Positions 1 through 63,566 of a stretch of 64,000 nucleotides of DNA are shown one piece after another. The position numbers were made by a program, and so were the translations under genes. The notes beneath the pieces were generated by a model. That model was not told the origin of the DNA, ran no database searches, and saw only the letters and a program-made list of their open reading frames with translations. Where the stretch lies: positions 1,313-65,312 of the forward strand of contig CAYPEN010000001.1 of NCBI GenBank assembly GCA_964409875.1. The letters run 5' to 3'. The first letter of the stretch is position 1. Each line of letters opens with the position of its first letter. The DNA is from an uncultured Gammaproteobacteria bacterium (GTDB lineage Bacteria > Patescibacteriota > Microgenomatia > Levybacterales > GWA1-39-11).

Positions 1-3000
1 TTGCAGCCGGTACCAATCCGACAGCATCAGTCAGTGCAACTTCAGGTTCAAATAATGGAAACGGAATTGTTATCGCCGGTGACGGTTCAATACAGTCCTT
101 AAGGAATAACACGTTAACACTTGGAGGTAATACAACAGGCAACATCACCATCAGCCCACAAAATGGAGCTGGAACGGTCACGGTCAATGGCACACTTGCA
201 GCAAAGACGAGTGGGGGTGCAACAATTGTCGTTGCTGCAAGCAACTCCTCGGCAAAAGGTAAAGCACAGGCTGACTATGTAGCAACAGGTACAAATGATG
301 ATGTAACTATCGAGTCGGCAATAGCCGCTCTCCCTGCAACTGGGGGGTCCGTGGTGTTATTGGATGGTACATACAATATCGGCAATGCTGCAGGAGACGG
401 AATTGATATTACTAAGTCGAACGTCTCAATCATAGGGTCTGGTAAGGCTACGATTCTGAAAAGACAAGGAGATACGGCTACAAATGATGGCGTTATTGCC
501 GCCACCTCAGTTTCACGTATAGCAATTGCTGATCTTGCGATAGACGGAACCAAGGCAACCTATACGGGCACACAAAATAGAGGTATTTATTTCAGTTCGG
601 CTGTTACTAATTCCCAAATCAGAAATACATACATTCACGACAATGACGGGACCGGTATTTATGTAGATTCATCAAGTAACAATAATACATTCAAAGATAA
701 TGACCTACAGTCTAACGGCGAGTACGGCGGTATTGTAATTGTCTCTTCAAATAGCAATATTATTTCGGGAAACAACCTGCAGTCCAATACTACGTATGGT
801 ATCTGGCTAGTCGCTTCAACAAATAACACGGTTACGGGTAATAATGTACAGTCAAACACCGGAACAGGTATCGAGATGTTCAACGGCGCCAACAATAACA
901 TCGTGACAGGGAATACATTGCAATCCAATACTCAAATCGGTATCTCTATTGATACAGCCAACAACAACAGCATAACGGGGAATAAGCTTTATGACAACAC
1001 CGGTAGCGGATCCAATTCATCAATCGTTCTTGCTACTGCCGACGCAAATACTATTGCTAATAACGACATTACGGATACAGCAGGAACGGGATATGCAATA
1101 AATATCTCAAACTCAGCAAGCGACAATAACTATGTGACAGGGAACCGTTATTCGGGGACAGGTGCGGCCAATATTTCAGATTCGGGTACAGGAACAATGT
1201 TAGCTTCGCAGCTTGCAAACAGCGGTAATGACCTTATTCTAAATGCAGCCCGGTATTTGGGTATTGGAACCGCAACACCCACCTCCGTTTTGAGTGTAGT
1301 GGGGGGCACTATGGGTGGTAATGCAGCTGTAATTCTCAACCAAACTGGTTCTTCCACTAATGATATTTTTGCCGCATCTTCATCGGGTACGACCAAATTC
1401 GTCATCAAAAATGATGGGACTGCTTCAACATCAGGAAATCTAGTTATCAATTCAACAGGTTCACTTCAAACCACAAATAACCAAACACTTACCCTTGGAG
1501 GGAGTTCCACAGGTGATATCGTTCTTAAGCCACGGAATGGGAGCGGTTTTGTGGGAATTGGTAATGCAAGTCCTGCCTATCCATTGGACCTTCTCTCTAC
1601 CACCAATCCGCAAGTCCGCTTCGGATATGATACTTCAAATTACATGACGCTGCAGATAGGTTCAAGCGGAGTAACAACCTTTGATGCGGTCGGGAGCGGA
1701 GCGGCATTCAACTTCAAAGATACGGTTTCGTTGGGTGTGTCAGGAGCTTCAAATGGGATTTTGCAATTTAATAATAGTGCTGGTGGAACAGCAGCAAGTA
1801 TTACTACTAACGCTTCAGGCGACTTAATTTTGCAGTCTTCAGGAGGAATTGTGAATTTGGGAGTAGGTTCGGGAGATATTACTATTGATCCCGGCACTAA
1901 TAATATAGTAGCCAATCTTACGTCAGGTAATTTCTATGGGCAGAAAAATGGAACAAGCCTTATCTCACTTTCTACATCAGGGACTCTTCCAGTTGCCTCC
2001 TTCTCCGGGACAACTTCTTTTGCAGGATTATTGGTTGATAACAGTGGGGTAGGCAATCTCTTCACCGCCTCAACCTCGGGTCTTACGAGGTTTACAATCA
2101 CTAATAATGGGACTGCTTCTTCATCAGCAGGGTTTACTATCGACGGAAATGGGGGAAATATTCAGTCAACACGAAACCAAAGTCTGACAATTGGTGGCGG
2201 CTCGACCGGGGAATTGACTATCGGTAGGACCTCGCAAAGGGTTTTTCTTCCCGGCTTTGATTGTTCGGGTAGCGGCAACGGAGGAAAACTTACGACTACC
2301 GCAGGCGGAGTCCTTACTTGTGCTGCCGATGGCGGAAGTAGCGGAGCAGCAGGTACTTGGACCCTGGATGGAACGAACGGCATTCACACTCCTATAAATA
2401 ATACAGCTGACCTTCTCGTTGGAGGGACTTCAACGCAGTCAGCCATGTTTAGTGTTTTGGGAATTGCAGCTGGTACCAATCCATCAGCATCTGTATCGGC
2501 CATCAATGGTGCAAATGCTAATAAGGGTATCTATATGGCAGGAGACGGGAGTTTGCAGAGTGTCCGCAACAACTTCCTCACCCTTGGAGGAAATACAACA
2601 GGAGATATTTATCTCAAGCCGCTGAACGGCGCAGGAATGGTGAGAATTATCCATGGCACTACCGGAACAGGTGGACTTATGCTAGGTGATTCAGAGACCG
2701 ATGCCACACAAAAGGCAGCACGTTTGAAGTCAATTCCATATAACAGTGCTTCCTCTCTTCCAATCTCAATGCTTATTGCTATCAATTCATCGACAAATAA
2801 CGTACTTAATATTGGGGGAGGTTCAAGCTCTGAGTATGCAGTAACCGATGTATATATTAAAACAGCTACCACTCAGACCACTACAGTAGGAACGACAAGA
2901 TTTTATGTTGGAGGAGCAAGCGGTTTTGTAGGAATCGGTGATACAAATACTTCTCCTGTTGCAAGGCTTGATATTTTAGATAATGCGACCGATATCAATG

Positions 3001-20391: not shown

Positions 20392-20469
20392 TAAACAAGT
20401 TTGTTCTCGTCCCAAATTTACTTTGTAAATTTATGCCGAAAATAAAACAAGTTTGTTCTCGTCCCAAAA
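20392..20469. repeat. direct repeat aacaagtttgttctcgtcccaaa x2
   Basis: Two copies of a ~23-nt sequence about 55 nt apart, immediately 3' of tRNA-Tyr on the minus strand. Confidence 0.5.
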
Positions 20470-20484
20470 AACTACGTTTTTTGT

Positions 20485-20569
20485 GCCGAGAATAGGATTC
20501 GAACCTATGTAGCCCAAACGGGCGACAGATTTACAGTCTGTTACGATTGACCGCTCCGTCATCTCGGCA
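20485..20569 (-). tRNA. tRNA-Tyr (anticodon GTA), long variable arm
   Basis: Reverse complement GCCGAGA-TG-ACGG-AGCGGTCAAT-TCGT-A-ACAGA-CTGTAAA-TCTGT-CGCCCGTTTGGGCTACAT-ATAGG-TTCGAAT-CCTAT-TCTCGGC-A. 7-bp acceptor stem, GTA at positions 34-36, canonical TTCGAAT T-loop. 85 nt, CCA not encoded. Confidence 0.85.
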
Positions 20570-20705
20570 CTAACTCTTTGTTTTCGACGATTGATGGTTC
20601 TGCAAGGCAGAAGCATATGATTTGCTCATTTTAAACTATATTTCTACAATCAAACAAATCATACCGCATTAATCATCTCGGCACGTTTATATTTTACTAT
20701 AAATT

Positions 20706-20768
20706 TGAGCCCCGAGTGGGAATCACCGCTCAATTGTTAAATTGACGCACCCACGGCCTCGTTCTTAC
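20706..20768 (-). pseudogene. partial copy of the tRNA-Thr 3' half (anticodon loop to 3' end) with a 24-nt insertion in the T-loop
   Basis: gagccccgagtgggaatc + accgctcaattgttaaattgacgc + acccacggcctcgttcttac. Identical to the intact tRNA-Thr at 20830-20874 except that the 24-nt insert replaces gg. Similarity stops in the anticodon loop. Confidence 0.5.
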
Positions 20769-20829
20769 GATTGACGAAGTCAAACGCAAGAGAGAAACGA
20801 CTCATTAAAGTTATCTCATATTCTATTTG

Positions 20830-20901
20830 AGCCCCGAGTGGGAATCGGACCCACGGCCTCGTTCTTACCAAGAACGCGCTCTACCACTGAGCCATCAGGG
20901 C
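20830..20901 (-). tRNA. tRNA-Thr (anticodon GGT)
   Basis: Reverse complement GCCCTGA-TG-GCTC-AGTGGTA-GAGC-G-CGTTC-TTGGTAA-GAACG-AGGCC-GTGGG-TCCGATT-CCCAC-TCGGGGC-T. 72 nt. One G-U in the acceptor stem. The T-loop reads TCCGATT (C at position 55), which is atypical. Confidence 0.75.
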
Positions 20902-20936
20902 AAACTATAACGATGGTGAAAGTGGCAAGGTTTCCT

Positions 20937-21002
20937 TACCACTGAGCCATCAGGGCAAACGCAATGGATCAGTGTAGTGATCACTGAGCCATCAGGGCTA
21001 AC
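20937..21002 (-). repeat. two extra copies of the tRNA-Thr 5' end (acceptor strand plus D-arm start), each preceded by GTTT/GTTA
   Basis: taccactgagccatcagggcaaac (20937-20960) and cactgagccatcagggctaac (20982-21002) repeat the ccactgagccatcagggca of the intact gene (20883-20901). They lie 5' of it on the coding strand. Confidence 0.5.
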
Positions 21003-21119
21003 TACAAACAATTCTGTTTGAATTGAAATTTTACCAAGAAGAACCATTTTTTTAAAGTGGTTATACGTATTTCAACCAACGTATTGATAAATTTGAGCGT
21101 ATAATTTATAATTGACAAC

Positions 21120-21299
21120 ATGGCAAAAAAATCTAAAGGAACACGACTTACACTCGGGCTGCAATGTACCGTTTGCAAGAATGTGAATTACATAACGGAG
21201 AGAAATAAGCTCAATACGCCGGAAAAATTAAATCTCAAGAAGTTCTGTAATTTCTGTAAGAAAATTCAGGTACATAAAGAAAGAGAAAAACTTAAATAG
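21120..21299 (+). CDS. rpmG: 50S ribosomal protein L33
   Basis: 59 aa, not in the ORF track because it is under the length cutoff. MAKKSKGTRLTLGLQCTVCKNVNYITERNKLNTPEKLNLKKFCNFCKKIQVHKEREKLK, with two CxxC pairs and the conserved NTPE(K/R)L(E/N)LKK(F/Y)C core. Confidence 0.85.
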   Translation: MAKKSKGTRLTLGLQCTVCKNVNYITERNKLNTPEKLNLKKFCNFCKKIQVHKEREKLK

Positions 21300-21310
21300 T
21301 CCTCGACTTG

Positions 21311-21412
21311 AGCTTGAAGTCTTCGTTTCACTCGACTATAAGCAAGCTTGAAGTCTTCGTTTCACTCGACTATAAGCAAGCTTGAAGTCTTCGTTTCACT
21401 CGACTATAAGCT
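21311..21412. repeat. 34-nt perfect tandem repeat x3 (agcttgaagtcttcgtttcactcgactataagca)
   Basis: Three head-to-tail copies read directly from the sequence, immediately downstream of rpmG. Confidence 0.85.
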
Positions 21413-21536
21413 CAACACACCTGAGAAATTAAATTTGAAGAAGTTCTGCAATTTTTTGCAAAAAGATACAGACTCACAAAGAAAGAGAAAAGTTAAAGTG
21501 AGTCGTTTCTTCACTCCCATTCGGTCCTTACGCTAA
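21413..21536 (+). pseudogene. degraded duplicate of the rpmG 3' half
   Basis: Encodes LNTPEKLNLKKFCNFLQKDTDSQRKRKVK versus LNTPEKLNLKKFCNFCKKIQVHKEREKLK of the intact gene. The second Cys of the CxxC pair is lost. It is fused in frame to repeat-derived sequence (ORF 21348..21536). Confidence 0.5.
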
Positions 21537-21561
21537 GTCATTACTCATTATCATATGCGGA

Positions 21562-21585
21562 AGTTTTTTTAAAAAAACTTCCTGA
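21562..21585. terminator. stem-loop GGAAGTTTTTTT/AAAAAAACTTCC, member of a hairpin family
   Basis: Perfect palindrome followed by tgaaaagaggaagaatgtcttgg. Closely similar elements lie at 63470-63492 (with the same tail aaaagaggaagaaagtcatgg) and 43163-43183. Confidence 0.45.
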
Positions 21586-21645
21586 AAAGAGGAAGAATGT
21601 CTTGGCTCCGCTCCTATTCAGTCGCTTCGCTAGTCTTTCTTTGTT

Positions 21646-25948: not shown

Positions 25949-28900
25949 TCAATTTATCGGAATATAATTGTCCAAATCCTCTAAAGATACTTTCCCATCG
26001 TTATTAAAGTCAGCAGTCTTACCATTCCCGCTCAACTTTTCAGAACGCCATATCAAAAGGTCTGAATTGTTGACCTTATTATCACAGTTAGCATCTCCTT
26101 GAGCTTTCAGTGGGCACGATTGGGCGGTTTGAGCACCCTGTACACTGCTATATGCCGTGTTTTGTTTTTTCGCACAAACAACGCATCTGTCATCAAATAT
26201 CTTACATGCGGTACCTTTGTCCGGACAACTTCTGAATTCAGAAGAAGCTACACCTGATTCTACATCTATTCTTCTTTTCTCCATTTTGTCTCCGTTGCAT
26301 GTCCAGTAGTCATATTTCACGCCTGCAAAAGCTGCCGATACAAAAGTTTTTGTGGCATCATACACAAGTGCTACATCAGCAGGACTTATGATATATGTAG
26401 CAGTTCCAAAAATATGTTCAGAAACTTGTTGAGCAATTATTTTGTTAACTCCTTTTGATGCTAAACGTTCTTCTAGCTCATAACCCACCAACTGGGTATA
26501 CTGACCGTGGGAATAGCTAATTATGTCTTGTCTTGATGCTTCTTCAAAATCCCTATTAACAATTAGTTCGGCATAGCTTACACCAGTTTTATCTTTGATA
26601 TATTGGTATGCCGTATCAATGATTAAGTTTTTCAAACTGAATGGCATAGGGATATTCGTTCCATCACCGCAATAGAGATGTTCAATGGTCGTGTTATCAA
26701 CTACAATAGGATCTGCACATTTAACCTTTTGATCTATCTCAGTACACACTTTGTTTTCTTTCCCGCAGTCTTCTTCTTTTATGAATGGACCGGACAATAT
26801 ATTGTTTCTGCATGCGGCTGAACCCTTAGGATACCATCCGTCCTTATCGGCTATCATATTAACATAGTTCTTTCCATTTTCGCCCTGATTAATTCCGCTT
26901 GATGGGTCATCTGCGCGATTCGTTGGGGGATGGACAGTAACGTTTTCAAGAGGCCGGTCATTACATATTGCGACAAGACCCACTTGGGTACATACCTTGC
27001 CTTCTGCAGCACAATCTTTTAAAAATTTATTAAAGGTCCATTCTGTTTTTGGATTACCCGACGAATCTTTTTCACCTGTTTCAATAATTCCAAGGTTATA
27101 TATTTTGTTGCTATCATTTCCTGTCCCGCAATGATTTGTAGCATTTTCCCTTTCATCAATGTTTTTCTTATCATTCGTACTATTGTCAAGGCAAGTATAT
27201 GATTCGAAATTTCCTGCGCCGACCACCTTACACTCTTGCCCTTTTGCTTTACAGTCAATGGCATTAGGATCCAGTCTTGGTGGGTTGAGGAAATTAAATT
27301 TTTGGGTTGGGTCGTATTTAGCATTCCCAGAAGAGAGATTAAAAATAACATTATCAACGCAGGTCCAACCTTCGGATTTGAAGTAAATATATTGTTTTTC
27401 CGAGGGACCTGAAGCACCGGGAATTATGGGTTTTGGAACACAACACAACTGTGACGTTGTTGCGCAGCTAGTGGTTCCGGTGGTATAGACTTCCTCCGTA
27501 TCACTGCAACTTTGACTCAAGCCGTTAATACATCTTCCACCTTTTGACGAGCAGTCGATAGGAGCAGCTGCCTTGCAACATGCCACATCAAATCCTGAAG
27601 AATCAGAGCAATTTGTCCCTACCGTATTTTGCTGTGTTCCGGTGGTGCATGCATTAGCTAAGGTAGTAAGGCATTCATATCCGGTCCCGTATTTTTGGGC
27701 GCAAGTCGTCGAAGGGTTGGTTTGTGAAGTGGTAGATGCATTTGTCGCAGTAACTTGAGTATTACCTGCTTTACAGCACATCATTTGAAAACCTCCTGAA
27801 TTATCACAGTCGGTTCCGGTCGGGTCCTTTTGAATCCCTGCCTTGCATTCATCGGTTGATGCTATCACACATTGGTATCCACTACCGTATTTTTGAGCGC
27901 AGGTTGATGTTGGACTAGATTGGGAGGTCGTTGAAGTGTTCGAAGAAGAATTTGAAGGAGCTACTGTTGGTGCGGCTGCTTTACAGCATGCCATATCAAA
28001 TCCAGCTGTATCCGAGCAATCTGTTCCCACAGTATTTTGTTGTATACCAGATTGGCATTCAGTTGATGAAGTCGTAAGACATTGGTATCCAGCACCGTAT
28101 TTTTGGTCACAAGAGAGTAATGAGGTTGTCGGTGTTGGGGTTGGTTGGGAATAGGGTGTTGGTGTGGGTGCGGCAGCTTTGCAGCATGCTACATCAAATC
28201 CTGCTGTATCCGAGCAATTTGTCCCTACTGTGTTTTGTCGTGTGCCGGACTGGCATTCGGTAGCGGAAGTTGTCAGACATTGATATCCATATCCATATTT
28301 CTGGTCACAGGAGAGTAATGTATTTGCCGGAGTTGGAGTGGATTGATAATAAGGGGTTGGTGTCGGGGTCGCAGCCTTGCAACACGCGACCTGAAACCCT
28401 GAAGAATCAGAGCAATCTGTACCTACCGTGCTTTGTTTTATTCCCGACTGGCATTCGGTAGCGGAAGTTGTAAGACATTGGTATCCTGCACCGTATTTTT
28501 GGTCACAGGATGAAGTGACAGGCGGCGCACAGGATTCACCGGTACTGATAGGTCCAAAATATCCGTTGGGGTCAAGCGTACACCCCTGTGCATTACAGGC
28601 TTCTACATCATAGAAAATACTTAAATTAGGTGCAAAACCTGAAATCGAGAAATTGGGTTGTGAGGAGGAAATCTGTTGCTGCCCGTTGGTATAACTTCCC
28701 CAGCCGTAAATTAAATGATAAGAGGTAGCATTTGGAACGGGAGCTGCAGAGAAGGAAATTGAAATTTGATTATTAGAACAAGTTCTGTTGGCACCCATAA
28801 CTCTTGGTCCTTGTGGAGGTCCTGCAACAACTTTGCAGCACGCATATGCACCTCCTGTATTGCATGTTGTTCCTATGGCAGACTGTTGTAGGTTGGGTGG

Positions 28901-29362
28901 TGCGCAGGTAGATGAGAAAGCGTCAACACATTGGTACCCTGCACCGTATTTTTGGTCACACGTTTGAGAGGACATTTGGGGAGTTGGGGTGGGTGCATCA
29001 GGAGCAAAACAACACATTGATTCTTGTCCAATCCATTGAGTGCATGCTGCATCCCCGTCCGGAGATGAGTAATGGGTTGAACCTGCAGGACATTGCGAAA
29101 AGTAGGAGAGAGGAACACAACTATTTGTGCCTCCCGTCGGATAATTGGGACAGCCGCTTTCTGCCGCATGCTGGCGGATATCAACCTGTTGCTTGAGTAC
29201 AAAAACCGTAACCGGAATAGAAAGCGCTGCTATAGCCACCAGAACCAATATGGGGATGAAGCCTTTTGAATTAAAATTAAATAATTTCGCTTGTGATATA
29301 TTTCTCACAAAAAATGATAGCCCGGTTATCAATATAGTAGCAGTGTTTAGTGTGCTTGACAA
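25949..29362 (-). CDS. large secreted protein with seven or more tandem 6-Cys ~40-aa repeats and a C-terminal dockerin-like module
   Basis: 1137 aa. Signal anchor. Repeats CDQKYGAGYQCLTTSATECQSG(I/T)(K/Q)QNTVGT(D/N)CSD(S/T)(S/A)GF(Q/D)VACCKAA, separated by AAPTPTPY linkers. C-terminus KAQGDANCDNKVNNSDLLIWRSEK...ADFNNDGKVSLEDLDNY, the same module as the neighbouring gene. A 2-nt gap to that gene. Confidence 0.65.
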   Translation of the reverse strand: MSSTLNTATILITGLSFFVRNISQAKLFNFNSKGFIPILVLVAIAALSIPVTVFVLKQQVDIRQHAAESGCPNYPTGGTNSCVPLSYFSQCPAGSTHYSSPDGDAACTQWIGQESMCCFAPDAPTPTPQMSSQTCDQKYGAGYQCVDAFSSTCAPPNLQQSAIGTTCNTGGAYACCKVVAGPPQGPRVMGANRTCSNNQISISFSAAPVPNATSYHLIYGWGSYTNGQQQISSSQPNFSISGFAPNLSIFYDVEACNAQGCTLDPNGYFGPISTGESCAPPVTSSCDQKYGAGYQCLTTSATECQSGIKQSTVGTDCSDSSGFQVACCKAATPTPTPYYQSTPTPANTLLSCDQKYGYGYQCLTTSATECQSGTRQNTVGTNCSDTAGFDVACCKAAAPTPTPYSQPTPTPTTSLLSCDQKYGAGYQCLTTSSTECQSGIQQNTVGTDCSDTAGFDMACCKAAAPTVAPSNSSSNTSTTSQSSPTSTCAQKYGSGYQCVIASTDECKAGIQKDPTGTDCDNSGGFQMMCCKAGNTQVTATNASTTSQTNPSTTCAQKYGTGYECLTTLANACTTGTQQNTVGTNCSDSSGFDVACCKAAAPIDCSSKGGRCINGLSQSCSDTEEVYTTGTTSCATTSQLCCVPKPIIPGASGPSEKQYIYFKSEGWTCVDNVIFNLSSGNAKYDPTQKFNFLNPPRLDPNAIDCKAKGQECKVVGAGNFESYTCLDNSTNDKKNIDERENATNHCGTGNDSNKIYNLGIIETGEKDSSGNPKTEWTFNKFLKDCAAEGKVCTQVGLVAICNDRPLENVTVHPPTNRADDPSSGINQGENGKNYVNMIADKDGWYPKGSAACRNNILSGPFIKEEDCGKENKVCTEIDQKVKCADPIVVDNTTIEHLYCGDGTNIPMPFSLKNLIIDTAYQYIKDKTGVSYAELIVNRDFEEASRQDIISYSHGQYTQLVGYELEERLASKGVNKIIAQQVSEHIFGTATYIISPADVALVYDATKTFVSAAFAGVKYDYWTCNGDKMEKRRIDVESGVASSEFRSCPDKGTACKIFDDRCVVCAKKQNTAYSSVQGAQTAQSCPLKAQGDANCDNKVNNSDLLIWRSEKLSGNGKTADFNNDGKVSLEDLDNYIPIN

Positions 29363-30526: not shown

Positions 30527-30597
30527 AGGGCTGTGATGAAATGGTATCATAGAGGTCTCCAAAACCTCTTTTCAGAGTTCGAATCTCTGCGGCCCTG
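30527..30597 (+). tRNA. tRNA-Trp (anticodon CCA)
   Basis: AGGGCTG-TG-ATGA-AATGGTA-TCAT-A-GAGGT-CTCCAAA-ACCTC-TTTT-CAGAG-TTCGAAT-CTCTG-CGGCCCT-G. 71 nt. Anticodon loop CTCCAAA. One G-U in the acceptor stem. Confidence 0.8.
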
Positions 30598-30636
30598 CAG
30601 CGATTTTAGCCTCAAAAAATCTGTTATAATTTACGA

Positions 30637-43079: not shown

Positions 43080-43082
43080 ATT

Positions 43083-43110
43083 GACGAAGCAAGCTCCGCT
43101 TACTTTGTGA
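43083..43110. repeat. 25-nt repeat acgaagcaagctccgcttactttgt with an internal hairpin (copy 1)
   Basis: First of three copies. The other two are tandem at 43283-43335. AAGCAAGC-TCC-GCTTACTT is a near-palindrome. Confidence 0.5.
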
Positions 43111-43162
43111 ACTATTGAAACGAACGAATGTGAGTGGAAAAAGCTTCTATACCTCTGTTCAG

Positions 43163-43183
43163 GAAGTTTTTCCAAAACTTCCG
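43163..43183. terminator. stem-loop GGAAGTTTT-TCC-AAAACTTCC after the 42330..43079 gene
   Basis: Perfect 9-bp stem. The stem sequence is the same as the hairpins at 21562 and 63470. Confidence 0.4.
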
Positions 43184-43282
43184 CATTCCATATTTTCAAG
43201 CTTACTAGATTAACAAAGCAAGGCAGAAATCCTCAGTTTCTACATCTTTCAAATAATTAAAATTCTGACTTACTTTGTCATT

Positions 43283-43335
43283 CACGAAGCAAGCTCCGCT
43301 TACTTTGTCATTCACGAAGCAAGCTCCGCTTACTT
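43283..43335. repeat. two tandem copies of the 25-nt repeat tcacgaagcaagctccgcttactttgt
   Basis: Read directly from the sequence. Confidence 0.6.
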
Positions 43336-43405
43336 TGTTGTTTGATAATCTATTCACAAAGCAAGACTGAACACCTTCTTTAAATTTACCACCTTGTATC
43401 AACTG

Positions 43406-49560: not shown

Positions 49561-50448
49561 TTAGAGGCTGAGGCGGAGCCCTGGGCTCATGGTAGACTTA
49601 AGCGTCACGGATGAGATTTTTTCGTTACCAACGCTTGAAAGAAAAGTTTTTATATTATCTTTGAGCTTGTTATCCTCAAAGCTTACTTTTCCGACAATGG
49701 CATGAATTATTGGGGCTTCACTTTCGGTTTTGAAACTGATTTGTCCGCCTGAAAGCTTTTTTACCGCTTCTTCAGGGTTTTCCGCAATTGTCCCATTTTT
49801 TGGATTTGGCATGAGCCCGCGGGGACCGAGAATCTTTGCGACCCGGGCAAGCTGCGGCATCATTTGGGGAGTTGCAACAAGCACATCAAAATTTATTTTT
49901 CCTTTGGCAACTTCAGCTAGTATTGCATCATCAGCGATTTTTATAACCAAAGTTTTTCCGGTCCCGTGTGGAAGGACAACTTGACCGCTGATTCCTTTTT
50001 CGCGGGTATTGATATGAAGCTCTACAGTTTCATCAAATTTTGATTTTTTGAACTTTTTAAGAGCTTCTAGCGCTTGGTCGAGTGAATAAGACTGAGTTTT
50101 TGAAACGAGCGTCTGGTTTTCTTTGTGTCTTTTTGATTCAACTTTGGCGTTAGCCTTTGCGAATTTTTCTTTTTTTGCTTTTTTCACCGGCTTTTCATCA
50201 ACAGGTTGGGCATCGGATTGTTTTTCTTCTTTTGCTTCTGCTGCATCTACTTTTGAAAGGTCCTCTGTTGCCTCAAGTTGTGCTTCAACAGCATCTTTTG
50301 CGACCGGTTCTTCAACCGTTTCCATTTCACCCTTTTCAGCCTTTTTTGCAGCCATCTTTTCAGCCTTTTTTGCTTCCCGTTTTGCTTTCAGTTTTGCCTC
50401 TTCCTCAGGGGAAGTTTCATCAAATGATTTAACTCTTATTTTACCCAT
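49561..50448 (-). CDS. rplA: 50S ribosomal protein L1 with about 110-aa K/E/A-rich N-terminal extension
   Basis: Core VELHINTREKG...LPHGTGKT...GPRGLMPNPKNGTI matches L1. The N-terminal region is low-complexity KKAEK/AKKEK. Confidence 0.85.
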   Translation of the reverse strand: MGKIRVKSFDETSPEEEAKLKAKREAKKAEKMAAKKAEKGEMETVEEPVAKDAVEAQLEATEDLSKVDAAEAKEEKQSDAQPVDEKPVKKAKKEKFAKANAKVESKRHKENQTLVSKTQSYSLDQALEALKKFKKSKFDETVELHINTREKGISGQVVLPHGTGKTLVIKIADDAILAEVAKGKINFDVLVATPQMMPQLARVAKILGPRGLMPNPKNGTIAENPEEAVKKLSGGQISFKTESEAPIIHAIVGKVSFEDNKLKDNIKTFLSSVGNEKISSVTLKSTMSPGLRLSL

Positions 50449-51165: not shown

Positions 51166-52059
51166 TTATATCTTCGAAACCTGAAGGAAGTCAAGCTCAA
51201 CGGGTGTTTCCCGTCCAAAAATTGAGACAAGTACTTTGACTTTCCCTTTTGCCTCATCAATTGACTCGACAGTTCCCAAAAAGTCTGAGAATGGTCCGTC
51301 TGTGATTTTGACTGCTTCTCCTTGAGTGAATTGCGCTTTGTAAACCGGTTCTTTTTGGCCTACGAATGCGACAATTGCCTGGACTTCATCATCTCTAATA
51401 GGAGTTGGTTTGTTCTGTGCACCTACAAATGAAGTAACACCTGGAGTGGTTCTCACCAAGACCCACGCTTCATCTGACAAATCCATGTTGACCAAAATGT
51501 ATCCGGGGAAGATTTTCTCCTTGATTGTTTCTTTTTTACCTCCACGGACTCGGATAGTGTCTCTCGTTGGAACAAGCGCGTCAAAAATTCTCTCTTCAAA
51601 TCCCATCGCCTGGACTCTTTGCATCAAGGTCTTTGCAACCTTGTTCTCGTGCCCGGAGTAGGTGTGGACGATATACCATTTTCCTCTATATTCTTTTTTG
51701 GGCGTAACGGGTGCTGGTGCGGGAGTTGCCTCTTCTTTGGCCGGCTCTTCCGCAGCTGCTTCCTCTATCATGTCCGTTGCATCTTCGGAAGTTTCCTCTG
51801 CACTTTCTTCGTTTGGGGCGGGGTCGACTACTTCGCTTTCTTCAATAGGCGCCTCAGGCGAATCCTGAATTTCATCAGCTACCGTTTCTTCAGCTTGATT
51901 TTCCTGAGTATCATCAGCCGGTACAGCTGATGCCAGTCCATCTTGCGATTCCGTGTCATCAGCTGGAACAGCTGATGCCATCATGTCATCCAGTGACATT
52001 TCGTCTGTATTATTTTGGTCTAATGTTTCCTCTTGTTTTAATTCGTCTTGTGTGTCCAT
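51166..52059 (-). CDS. nusG: transcription antiterminator NusG with about 120-aa acidic repeat-containing N-terminal extension
   Basis: NGN domain KWYIVHTYSGHENKV. KOW domain GEAVKITDGPFSDFLGTVESID. N-extension has a duplicated ASAVPADDT(E/Q) unit. Confidence 0.85.
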   Translation of the reverse strand: MDTQDELKQEETLDQNNTDEMSLDDMMASAVPADDTESQDGLASAVPADDTQENQAEETVADEIQDSPEAPIEESEVVDPAPNEESAEETSEDATDMIEEAAAEEPAKEEATPAPAPVTPKKEYRGKWYIVHTYSGHENKVAKTLMQRVQAMGFEERIFDALVPTRDTIRVRGGKKETIKEKIFPGYILVNMDLSDEAWVLVRTTPGVTSFVGAQNKPTPIRDDEVQAIVAFVGQKEPVYKAQFTQGEAVKITDGPFSDFLGTVESIDEAKGKVKVLVSIFGRETPVELDFLQVSKI

Positions 52060-62177: not shown

Positions 62178-63449
62178 ATGCGATTTCATAGAAGCGTTCT
62201 TTCGAATGGGGTAAGAGTCATTGTTGTTCCTGTTGCAGGAGTTGAGTCGGCGACGACTTTAGTCATGTACGGAGCAGGCAGTAGATACGAGGAAAAGAAG
62301 AACAACGGTATTTCCCACTTTTTAGAGCACATGGCCTTTAAAGGTACCACCAATAGACCATCAGCCCGTGAAATTTCTGCGCTCATTGACGGGATCGGCG
62401 CAGAATTTAATGCTTTTACCGGTAAGGAATACACTGGTTACTACATAAAATCAGCCACAACGCATGTCAATTTATGCCTTGATGTGCTTTCCGATATGCT
62501 TAAGAATTTACTTCTCGACCCTGCAGAAATTGAGCGGGAAAAGGGAGTAATAATAGAAGAAATCAATCTTTATGAAGATACTCCGATGCGAAACATAGGA
62601 GATATTTATGAACGGCTTTTGTACGGAGATACGCCTCTGGGATGGGATACGGCTGGAACTCCGGACATTATAAAAAGCTTAAATCGTGATGACTTCGTAA
62701 ATTATATGGGCAGACTTTACAGCGCCCACAACATGACGGTTGTTGTTGCGGGAAATGTTCATCTGGAGACAATTCACAAAGAAATTGAAAAGTATTTTGG
62801 TGATGTTCCCAGATTTGACGTCGAGAAATTTTTGCCAATTCATGAAAAACAACATAAATACGAAGTTGCAATAAAACACAAAAGGACTGAGCAGGCGCAT
62901 TTTGCATTGGGAGTCAGGACCGTTGGAATTCATGACAAGAAAGACAGATATCCTTTGGAAATTTTGGCCTCAATTTTGGGAGGAGGCATGTCATCGAGGC
63001 TTTTTTATGAGGTACGTGAACGGCGCGGGTTGTCGTATTATGTGAGAACATCCTCGGACCATTATATAGATGCCGGCTACATGGCAACATATGTCGGGGC
63101 AGATCCAAAGAGAATTGATGAGGCAATACAAGTTGTTGCCGAAGAATATGTAAAGGTAAGTGAGAAAGGGGAGATAACCGAGGATGAGCTGAAAAAGGCA
63201 AAGGAGTACACAAAGGGGCATTTTGTTTTGGAGCTGGAGGACACGAGAAGTGCCGCGATAATGTATGCATCCCAAGAAATTTTGCAGCATGAGTTACATA
63301 ATCCGCACGAAGTTATTGAAAGAATAGAAAAAGTGAGCGTGGATGACGTTCACCGCGTTGCAAAAGAATATCTGGATACAAAATTATTGTCGTTAGCGGT
63401 TATTGGTAATTTTGAGGATAAAGACCGCTTTGAAAGGTTGCTAAGATAA
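62178..63449 (+). CDS. M16-family zinc peptidase (pitrilysin/insulinase-like)
   Basis: HxxEH inverted zinc motif in GISHFLEHMAFKGT. E at the expected distance (GVIIEEI). 423 aa. Confidence 0.8.
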   Translation: MRFHRSVLSNGVRVIVVPVAGVESATTLVMYGAGSRYEEKKNNGISHFLEHMAFKGTTNRPSAREISALIDGIGAEFNAFTGKEYTGYYIKSATTHVNLCLDVLSDMLKNLLLDPAEIEREKGVIIEEINLYEDTPMRNIGDIYERLLYGDTPLGWDTAGTPDIIKSLNRDDFVNYMGRLYSAHNMTVVVAGNVHLETIHKEIEKYFGDVPRFDVEKFLPIHEKQHKYEVAIKHKRTEQAHFALGVRTVGIHDKKDRYPLEILASILGGGMSSRLFYEVRERRGLSYYVRTSSDHYIDAGYMATYVGADPKRIDEAIQVVAEEYVKVSEKGEITEDELKKAKEYTKGHFVLELEDTRSAAIMYASQEILQHELHNPHEVIERIEKVSVDDVHRVAKEYLDTKLLSLAVIGNFEDKDRFERLLR

Positions 63450-63469
63450 GCCTTTCCTCTGTATGGTAT

Positions 63470-63492
63470 GCGGAAGTTTTGTTTCAAAACTT
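63470..63492. terminator. stem-loop GGAAGTTTTG-TTTC-AAAACTTTC, member of the hairpin family
   Basis: One-mismatch stem. The flanks tatgcggaagtttt...aaaagaggaagaaagtcatgg are almost identical to the element at 21555-21606. Confidence 0.45.
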
Positions 63493-63566
63493 TCTAAAAA
63501 GAGGAAGAAAGTCATGGATCCGCTAAAGATAGGTTTGAAAAGCTTTTAAAGTGATATACTTCGATT

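Follow-up and report, generated by a model that had tools for sequence, protein, structure and literature searches.

Partial copies of tRNA-Thr, tRNA-Tyr and rpmG clustered at one locus of a Levybacteria-like bacterium, probable debris of repeated local duplication, inversion and deletion

The DNA analysed here, a 64-kb stretch referred to as the window, is that of a Levybacteria-like bacterium of the candidate phyla radiation (CPR), and the locus in question is an intact transfer RNA (tRNA) gene, tRNA-Thr(GGT), that is surrounded by partial copies of itself and of its two neighbours. The gene is on the minus strand at 20829..20901 (ARAGORN; Rfam tRNA model, 64.7 bits; start at 20829/30 in the two calls), with an intact tRNA-Tyr(GTA) gene on the same strand at 20483..20568, also called by both ARAGORN and Rfam, and an intact rpmG, encoding ribosomal protein L33, in divergent orientation at 21120..21299 on the plus strand. 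Genes for tRNAs were called with ARAGORN and Rfam covariance models, partial copies were sought by BLAST of tRNA-Thr against the whole window with a repeat finder used for extension into the flanks, and fold z-scores and similarity counts were judged against shuffled sequences. BLAST identified four exact partial copies of tRNA-Thr, all within 200 nt of the gene and all on the minus strand, corresponding to nt 1-20 (20956-20937, E 3e-6), nt 1-17 (20998-20982, E 2e-4), nt 34-53 (20768-20749, E 3e-6) and nt 56-73 (20724-20707, E 5e-5); beyond these four, no match to tRNA-Thr in the window exceeds 10 nt. Breakpoints in tRNA-Thr are concentrated in its D loop (nt 17-21) and anticodon loop.

Upstream of tRNA-Thr there are two copies of its 5′-end, each part of a hairpin. 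The nearer, copy B, has a GTTT leader plus tRNA-Thr nt 1-20 as its sense arm (20937..20960, minus strand, 24/24 identical to the gene), and the spacer between it and the gene (CCTTGCCACT...CCATCG; 20906..20936, minus strand) can pair with copy B, to which it is complementary, in a 16-bp hairpin; copy B and this 31-nt spacer have a predicted fold of -21.3 kcal/mol (z -4.6, 0/200 shuffles). The spacer ends, next to the gene, in 9 nt (TTATAGTTT) that match the leader in strain L002, the closest of the relatives, which are identified here by L numbers. The more distant copy C has a GTTA leader plus tRNA-Thr nt 1-17 as its sense arm (20982..21002, minus strand; BLAST and repeat finder), followed by a loop and antisense arm (20961..20981, minus strand) that includes CTA-CACTGATCCAT at 20977-20964, the antisense of tRNA-Thr nt 8-21 (13/15 match, 30/5000 shuffles). 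The arms of copy C pair as an 11-bp hairpin, with fold z-scores of -2.25 in the window and -3.6 in L004. A sense copy followed by an adjacent antisense copy, the anatomy of a quasi-palindrome, is therefore present at copy C; at copy B only the hairpin is significant.

Directly upstream of copy C, the tRNA operon has a promoter-like site, TTTAAA-17-TAAAAT, extended by a TG (21028..21056, minus strand; extended -10 TGnTAAAAT at 21033-21028). The TGnTAAAAT sequence is conserved upstream of tRNA-Thr in seven relatives (L002, L004, L125, L128, L126, L136 and L003) and, as it directly precedes tRNA-Thr in relatives without the copies, copy C occupies the place at which the gene usually starts. The fragments make no tRNA, and their visible effect is to separate the promoter from the mature tRNA by a long, strongly structured leader. 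In a predicted fold of the entire precursor (20825-21022, minus strand; -77.1 kcal/mol, z -5.1), the acceptor 3′ strand pairs with the GCCCUGA of copy C and not with the 5′-end of the tRNA itself.

Downstream of tRNA-Thr is a remnant of its 3′ portion, in two parts. The first, nt 34-53, extends from the anticodon loop to the T stem (20749..20768, minus strand, 20/20 identical), and the second is nt 56-73 plus an AAAT trailer (20703..20724, minus strand, 22/22 identical). Between them, in place of the CC at T-loop positions 55-56, is a 24-nt insert (GCGTCAATTTAACAATTGAGCGGT on the tRNA strand; 20725..20748, minus strand) that contains a 6-bp hairpin, TCAATT/AATTGA. Templating of the insert from nearby sequence was considered and rejected, the CGTCAAT that it has in common with the junction being not significant (550/5000 shuffles). 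At the start of the remnant a junction string (GTCAATCGTAA; 20765..20775, minus strand) is identical at 11/11 positions to tRNA-Tyr nt 18-28 and overlaps the tRNA-Thr fragment by GTAA, and the flanking TTCGYMAATCGTA of this junction is common to the window and L125. The 60-nt spacer that separates tRNA-Thr from the 3′ fragment is mostly an inverted vestige of the rpmG 3′-end and its downstream flank (20793..20818, minus strand), with a 22/26 match to 21484-21510 on the plus strand (0/2000 shuffles); it also resembles, more weakly, the flank of the intact rpmG. These inverted copies of the rpmG end, at 20793-20818 (minus strand) and 21484-21510 (plus strand), bracket the tRNA-Thr/rpmG block and could mediate its inversion.

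Both neighbouring genes have likewise been copied in part. A 12-nt string (GTGCCGAGATGA; 20673..20684, minus strand), detected by BLAST and the repeat finder, repeats the tRNA-Tyr 5′-end together with 2 nt of its leader, and two 24-nt direct repeats on the 3′ side of tRNA-Tyr (20393-20416 and 20445-20468, minus strand) are 100% identical by the repeat finder; the proximal repeat pairs with the tRNA-Tyr 3′-end and trailer through 17-nt arms that are 88% complementary. Downstream of rpmG, on the plus strand, three tandem 34-nt repeats (21311..21412), each composed of the rpmG downstream flank and ATAAGC, a string internal to rpmG, are followed by a direct partial copy of the rpmG 3′ half (21406..21501, ~80% DNA identity). 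In the first block of this copy all 7 of the differing codons are synonymous; a single frameshift follows, beyond which 14/15 residues and the stop codon are retained (CKKIQTHKEREKLK plus stop versus CKKIQVHKEREKLK plus stop). Differences that are only synonymous, together with one frameshift, identify the copy as what is left of a second, long-functional L33 gene, either a paralog or a xenolog. Upstream of the intact rpmG, a promoter-like site (TTGATA-17-TATAAT, 11/12; 21084-21120) ends 8 nt ahead of the ATG, and the L33 mRNA may therefore be leaderless.

An earlier note on this DNA, made from the letters alone, had described much of this anatomy. That tRNA-Thr is flanked by partial copies of itself holds in BLAST and repeat-finder searches (E 3e-6 to 2e-4), as do the two upstream copies of its first ~20 nt with GTTT and GTTA leaders, which are exact over nt 1-20 and nt 1-17, and the hairpin-forming 24-nt insert in the T loop, which replaces CC on the tRNA strand at positions 55-56. 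The 3′ copy is indeed downstream of the gene, although the gap is 60 nt instead of 50 and the copy extends to 20703; similarly, the doubled direct repeat beside tRNA-Tyr is real, with a length of 24 nt rather than 23. The note had overlooked the 5′ copy of tRNA-Tyr, the tRNA-Tyr-like junction string and both partial copies of the rpmG 3′-end.

An assembly error is unlikely to account for the tRNA-Thr copies. The misassembled repeat that the earlier note wished to see checked is answered by a Logan assembly, L001, that reproduces the arrangement with 100% identity over 3.2 kb, and by the recurrence of single modules in other samples, L125 and L004. Related loci were obtained through L33 homologues, which are Levybacteria, and an exact search with tRNA-Thr led to two genomes, L004, a metagenome-assembled genome (MAG) of Candidatus Levyibacteriota, and L003, a MAG labelled Gammaproteobacteria. 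L003 (CAZVGS010000006.1, 'uncultured Gammaproteobacteria') has tRNA-Thr and tRNA-Tyr genes identical to those in the window and a Levybacteria-like L33 locus, and so its label is probably a taxonomic mis-assignment.

In L125, copy B (217-236, 20/20) is accompanied by a homologous spacer, and the hairpin is the same (z -3.4); aligned with the window, there are no changes in the 24 nt of copy B and ~5 in the 27 nt of its spacer. L125 also has, downstream, a degenerate tRNA-like remnant that begins at nt 18 (GTAGAGCGC) behind a common TTCGYMAATC junction, and the difference in starting point, nt 34 in the window and nt 18 in L125, can be attributed to a 16-nt deletion between two GTA repeats. Degenerate remnants in L125 and L127 have T-loop inserts at the same position, of ~58 and ~47 nt, respectively, the homology between the inserts being only suggestive. 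L004 carries an orthologous copy C at 2053-2034 and a short orthologous vestige of the second rpmG. With homologues in L125 (copy B) and in L004 (copy C and the rpmG vestige), these modules are old and inherited. In L128, a degenerate copy of the 3′ two-thirds of tRNA-Tyr (217-290, minus strand), from the anticodon stem to the 3′-end and exact over the last 17 nt, is located ~45 nt past that gene.

L002, which is 96-98% identical to the window, is without exactly two blocks. One is the 97-nt block that contains copies B and C with their spacers (20909..21005, minus strand, position ambiguous by 2 nt), and the junction of this deletion falls between imperfect direct repeats of ~28 nt, one of them copy C and the other the gene's own 5′-end. 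The other is a 306-nt block with the rpmG fragment (21329..21634, plus strand), the ends of which share AGTCTT. As copies B and C are present in far more distant relatives, L002 most parsimoniously lost both by deletion. Microhomology is seen at novel junctions, as GTA/GTAA at the start of the remnant, AGTCTT at the ends of the 306-nt indel and the ~28-nt imperfect repeat at the 97-nt indel.

The order and orientation of the intact genes also vary, with at least five arrangements in the window and its relatives. Relative to rpmG on the plus strand, these are Tyr+ Thr+ rpmG (L003, L138-144), Tyr+ Thr- rpmG (L004), Tyr- Thr+ rpmG (L125), Tyr- Thr- rpmG (the window and L128) and Thr+ rpmG Tyr+ (L129-134), and the locus is a hotspot of rearrangement and gene turnover. 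The usual rpmG-tRNA-Trp-secE-nusG-rplKA neighbourhood is split in the window, with tRNA-Trp (30527-30598, plus strand; ARAGORN and Rfam) 9 kb from rpmG, and nusG and rplA (49561-50448 and 51166-52059) 30 kb off on the opposite strand.

Two alleles of tRNA-Thr(GGT) alternate at this one locus, GCCGGCG... in L138-L144, L137 and L127 and GCCCTGA... in the window, L003, L004, L125 and L128, the latter four having the identical 73 nt. The two alleles that were compared have an identical 18-nt D arm (nt 8-25), and the alleles occur in relatives with L33 proteins that cluster at ≥90% identity, a distribution that suggests replacement of the tRNA gene between lineages. Position 55 of tRNAs is almost always U (pseudouridine 55). 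The T loop of tRNA-Thr in the window (20846-20852) is UCCGAUU, with C at this position, as it is also in L003, L004, L125, L128 and L129; the alternative allele has the canonical UUCGAUU. In L129-L134 (Levybacteria CG_4_10 MAGs), a Y1_Tnp gene (IS200/IS605-type or RAYT-like) directly follows tRNA-Tyr and tRNA-Thr and rpmG have a 23S_rRNA_IVP gene between them, so that the locus collects small genes of selfish appearance. The 221-aa open reading frame (ORF) beside tRNA-Tyr in the window was considered as a Y1 transposase, like the 221-aa protein of L129, and rejected as the two have no similarity.

The anatomy, the modules common to the window and its relatives, the polymorphism and the lack of a mobile element are observed; on these grounds the fragments are probably decaying debris, left around tRNA-Thr, tRNA-Tyr and rpmG by local duplication, inversion and deletion that recurred in this lineage. 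Errors of replication or repair, such as template switching, fold-back synthesis and microhomology-mediated joining, would have generated direct and inverted local duplications, and larger duplicates, including whole tRNA and rpmG copies, would then have been trimmed as DNA between short repeats was deleted. Presumably the fragments are kept identical to the gene by conversion from the intact tRNA-Thr beside them, as suggested by the contrast between this 100% identity and the spacers, which have diverged from those of L125, and the direct repeats that remain would drive further deletions, as in L002. Repeated recombination and template switching, two of the causes put forward in the earlier note, are the ones favoured by the evidence. 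Copy B (nt 1-20) and the beginning of the L125 remnant (nt 18) would also fit a nested gene, in which an older tRNA received a whole tRNA cassette in its D loop; we do not assert this, as it is inseparable from two independent partial tandem duplications.

Several observations weigh against the debris explanation. The mutational mechanism and the order of events are deduced from the anatomy, no intermediate having been observed, and the relatives are about a dozen related loci, all metagenomic. Under strict scoring, the complementary arm of copy B has no significant similarity to antisense tRNA (4089/5000 shuffles), so that a fold-back origin, supported for copy C, is only plausible for copy B. 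The anticodon loop, where the remnant starts, and the T loop, where it is interrupted, are reportedly the two classic sublocations of integrase crossover, and an ancient element-mediated step is thus possible. A 30-nt block over the copy C hairpin is 100% identical in the window and L004, whereas column identity averages 76% over the whole alignment; 18 nt of this hairpin are not shared with the tRNA and could not be maintained by conversion, and so their conservation fits selection better than pure debris.

The last of these observations raises the prospect, unlikely overall, that hairpins C and B originated as duplication debris and are now selected as cis-acting leader elements. Such elements could be a palindrome that a protein binds, in the region where the tRNA-Thr and rpmG promoters diverge, or RNA structures that affect how the precursor folds, how it is processed or how stable it is. 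The 30 nt of the C hairpin are conserved between the window and L004 as strictly as the two promoters, the base of the C stem has U-A and A-U pairs in L004 where the window has U-G and G-U, and the B hairpin is preserved in L125, with the differences between the window and L125 falling in loops; in the predicted precursor fold, copy C also competes for the acceptor 3′ strand. Both hairpins are, however, missing from L002 and L128 and so are dispensable, the B-like region of L003 is degenerate and has not kept the fold, and the sequences, which match no known RNA family, are too few for a covariation test. Consensus folds of the remnants with T-loop inserts (window, L125 and L127) and of the B elements (window, L125 and L003) gave poor alignments and no convincing covariation. 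It is very doubtful that the leader hairpins are a selected cis-regulatory device, built from a tRNA 5′ segment and its complement, that tunes tRNA-Thr maturation or rpmG expression; in such a device, decoy 5′-ends and complementary arms could compete with D-arm or acceptor pairing in the nascent tRNA-Thr, or the palindromes could bind a regulator of the two divergent promoters. A weaker variant would have tRNA genes inverted in place through site-specific recombination, with the tRNA-Thr D loop as its hotspot. Replacement in situ is also improbable as the principal origin. A foreign tRNA-Thr or rpmG allele from a related lineage would have entered by homology-facilitated illegitimate recombination within conserved tRNA sequence, with the resident copies then decaying, consistent with the alternation of tRNA-Thr alleles with identical D arms, with the acceptor strand of copy C in L004 (GCCTTAA), which differs from that of the adjacent gene, and with an rpmG fragment that has diverged at synonymous sites only, as would a xenolog or an old paralog. 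The rpmG fragment is, however, no nearer to any sampled relative than to the rpmG of the window, and because the window fragments are 100% identical to the resident gene, a foreign origin is invisible in them. Replacement overlaps the debris explanation and does not exclude it.

The earlier note regarded duplicated tRNA 3′ portions as scars of insertion and excision by a tyrosine integrase. One or more integrative elements would have used tRNA-Thr as attB, with crossover in the anticodon or T loop, and later been deleted almost entirely, leaving the 3′ fragment and the T-loop insert. As in an att site, the direct repeat is the 3′ portion of the gene (nt 34-53 and nt 56-73 plus AAAT, exact), beginning inside the anticodon and spanning the 3′-end and 4 nt of trailer, with an interruption in the T loop; small variable cargo genes (PaaX-like, 23S_rRNA_IVP and Y1_Tnp) adjoin these tRNAs in relatives, and integration of elements, with partial duplication of the tRNA, is a documented and common source of tRNA gene fragments (PMC9897764). 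The copies are, however, 25-60 nt from the gene, gaps much too small to have room for an element, and the mere 60 nt between gene and 3′ fragment are the inverted rpmG vestige rather than element DNA. No integrase or transposase Pfam matches were found in the ~40 ORFs of the window, BLAST detected no further partial tRNA-Thr copy in the window that could bound an island, and no viral contig contained a 20-mer of the tRNA-Thr 3′ half, although CPR phages are poorly sampled; phage matches to tRNA-Thr were only to generic tRNA-Thr genes, at 79-88% identity. The orthologous L125 remnant begins in the D loop (nt 18) and not in the anticodon loop, and an integrase would not yield the 5′ copies, the complementary arms, the rpmG copies or the tRNA-Tyr 5′ copy. 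With no positive support, integrase scars are an improbable source, and the earlier note was correct that this model alone does not explain the 5′ copies and the T-loop insert. Its other suggestion, a fragmented or permuted tRNA, is scarcely credible when extended to any split, permuted or intron-containing tRNA, as is an assembly artefact. Copy B (nt 1-20) and the remnant (nt 34-73) do bracket the intact gene, with acceptor strands that are complementary in the window, but the fragments lack nt 21-33 and so D stem, anticodon stem and cloverleaf cannot form, and neither ARAGORN nor the Rfam tRNA model, even at E ≤10, reports an additional gene. In L125 the halves do not pair, as GCCCTGA of copy B and CTTGGGC of the remnant are mismatched at 2 of 7 positions, with one G-U wobble. 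An artefact would have to be reproduced in full in a second assembly, with its modules recurring in other samples.

Over the fragments, Rfam gave no family matches at E ≤10, only the two tRNAs passing and everything else falling far below threshold. Repetitive extragenic palindromes with their associated tyrosine transposases (REP/RAYT) and miniature inverted-repeat transposable elements (MITEs) were rejected, since self-BLAST of the window found no other copies of hairpin B, hairpin C or the insert, and the window has no Y1_Tnp. An array of clustered regularly interspaced short palindromic repeats (CRISPR) was rejected as the three copies are spaced by 42 and 55 nt, the repeat is a tRNA 5′-end and there are no cas matches, and an integron attC site was rejected on anatomy. 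A metagenome scan with GCCYTRATGGCTCAGTG returned 120 loci with single matches, in which ARAGORN called 6 tRNAs, 2 of them with the pattern and none related; the scan is uninformative as a control. Elsewhere, a ~78-nt element centred on a hairpin (GGAAGTTTTTTTAAAAAAACTTCC) is repeated, with 80% identity, at 21534-21612, inside the 306-nt block missing from L002, and at 63447-63524; it is located after the rpmG fragment and after an ORF for an M16-type peptidase-like protein, and is possibly a family of bidirectional terminators. The ORF at 25949-29362 (minus strand), encoding a 1137-aa dockerin-containing protein, has internal DNA repeats at 27561-28510, with offsets that are multiples of ~200 nt and 67-84% identity, and there are three 29-nt repeats within 43080-43338.

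On the favoured reading, the locus is an unusually clear fossil record of the shuffling, duplication and later erosion of tRNA and ribosomal-protein genes in a small, streamlined CPR genome. Within 1 kb there is duplication, inversion, probable gene conversion and repeat-mediated deletion, with the L002 deletions caught as a population polymorphism, and the locus illustrates how tRNA genes turn over in Patescibacteria, the swapping of alleles included. It is a caution for tRNA annotation and for the prediction of genomic islands from partial tRNA repeats. If the conserved leader hairpins do function, they would constitute a new kind of tRNA leader element. The feature itself is basically of an ordinary kind, with an unusually rich anatomy.

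The nearest described kind is element integration (PMC9897764), which is defined by an element between the repeats that the locus does not have. As in the att direct repeats of prophages, integrative and conjugative elements (ICEs) and genomic islands, a tRNA 3′ portion, from the anticodon loop to a few bases into the trailer, has been duplicated downstream in direct orientation; unlike them, there is no element or integrase, the copies are tens of bases rather than kilobases apart, there are 5′ copies with complementary arms, and rpmG and tRNA-Tyr have also been partially copied. Pairs of partial and full tRNAs are known to reveal rearrangements (PMC9897764) and, as with tRNA pseudogene fragments at the endpoints of plastid rearrangements and with prokaryotic islands that later underwent inversion, the fragments mark a region in which gene order and orientation vary; here, in contrast, they are clustered within 300 nt of the parent gene and the tRNA genes appear to have been flipped in place among relatives. 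The hairpins provide a third comparison, in which a sense copy stands beside an antisense copy with microhomology at junctions and inverted copies of a neighbour, the rpmG end, close by, as in quasi-palindrome and fold-back duplications. Quasi-palindrome or template-switch mutations and fold-back duplications are errors of replication or repair, familiar from mutagenesis in E. coli and yeast. Unlike such mutations when fresh, the copies described here are old and inherited across diverged lineages, and one of their hairpins is more conserved than neutral debris should be.

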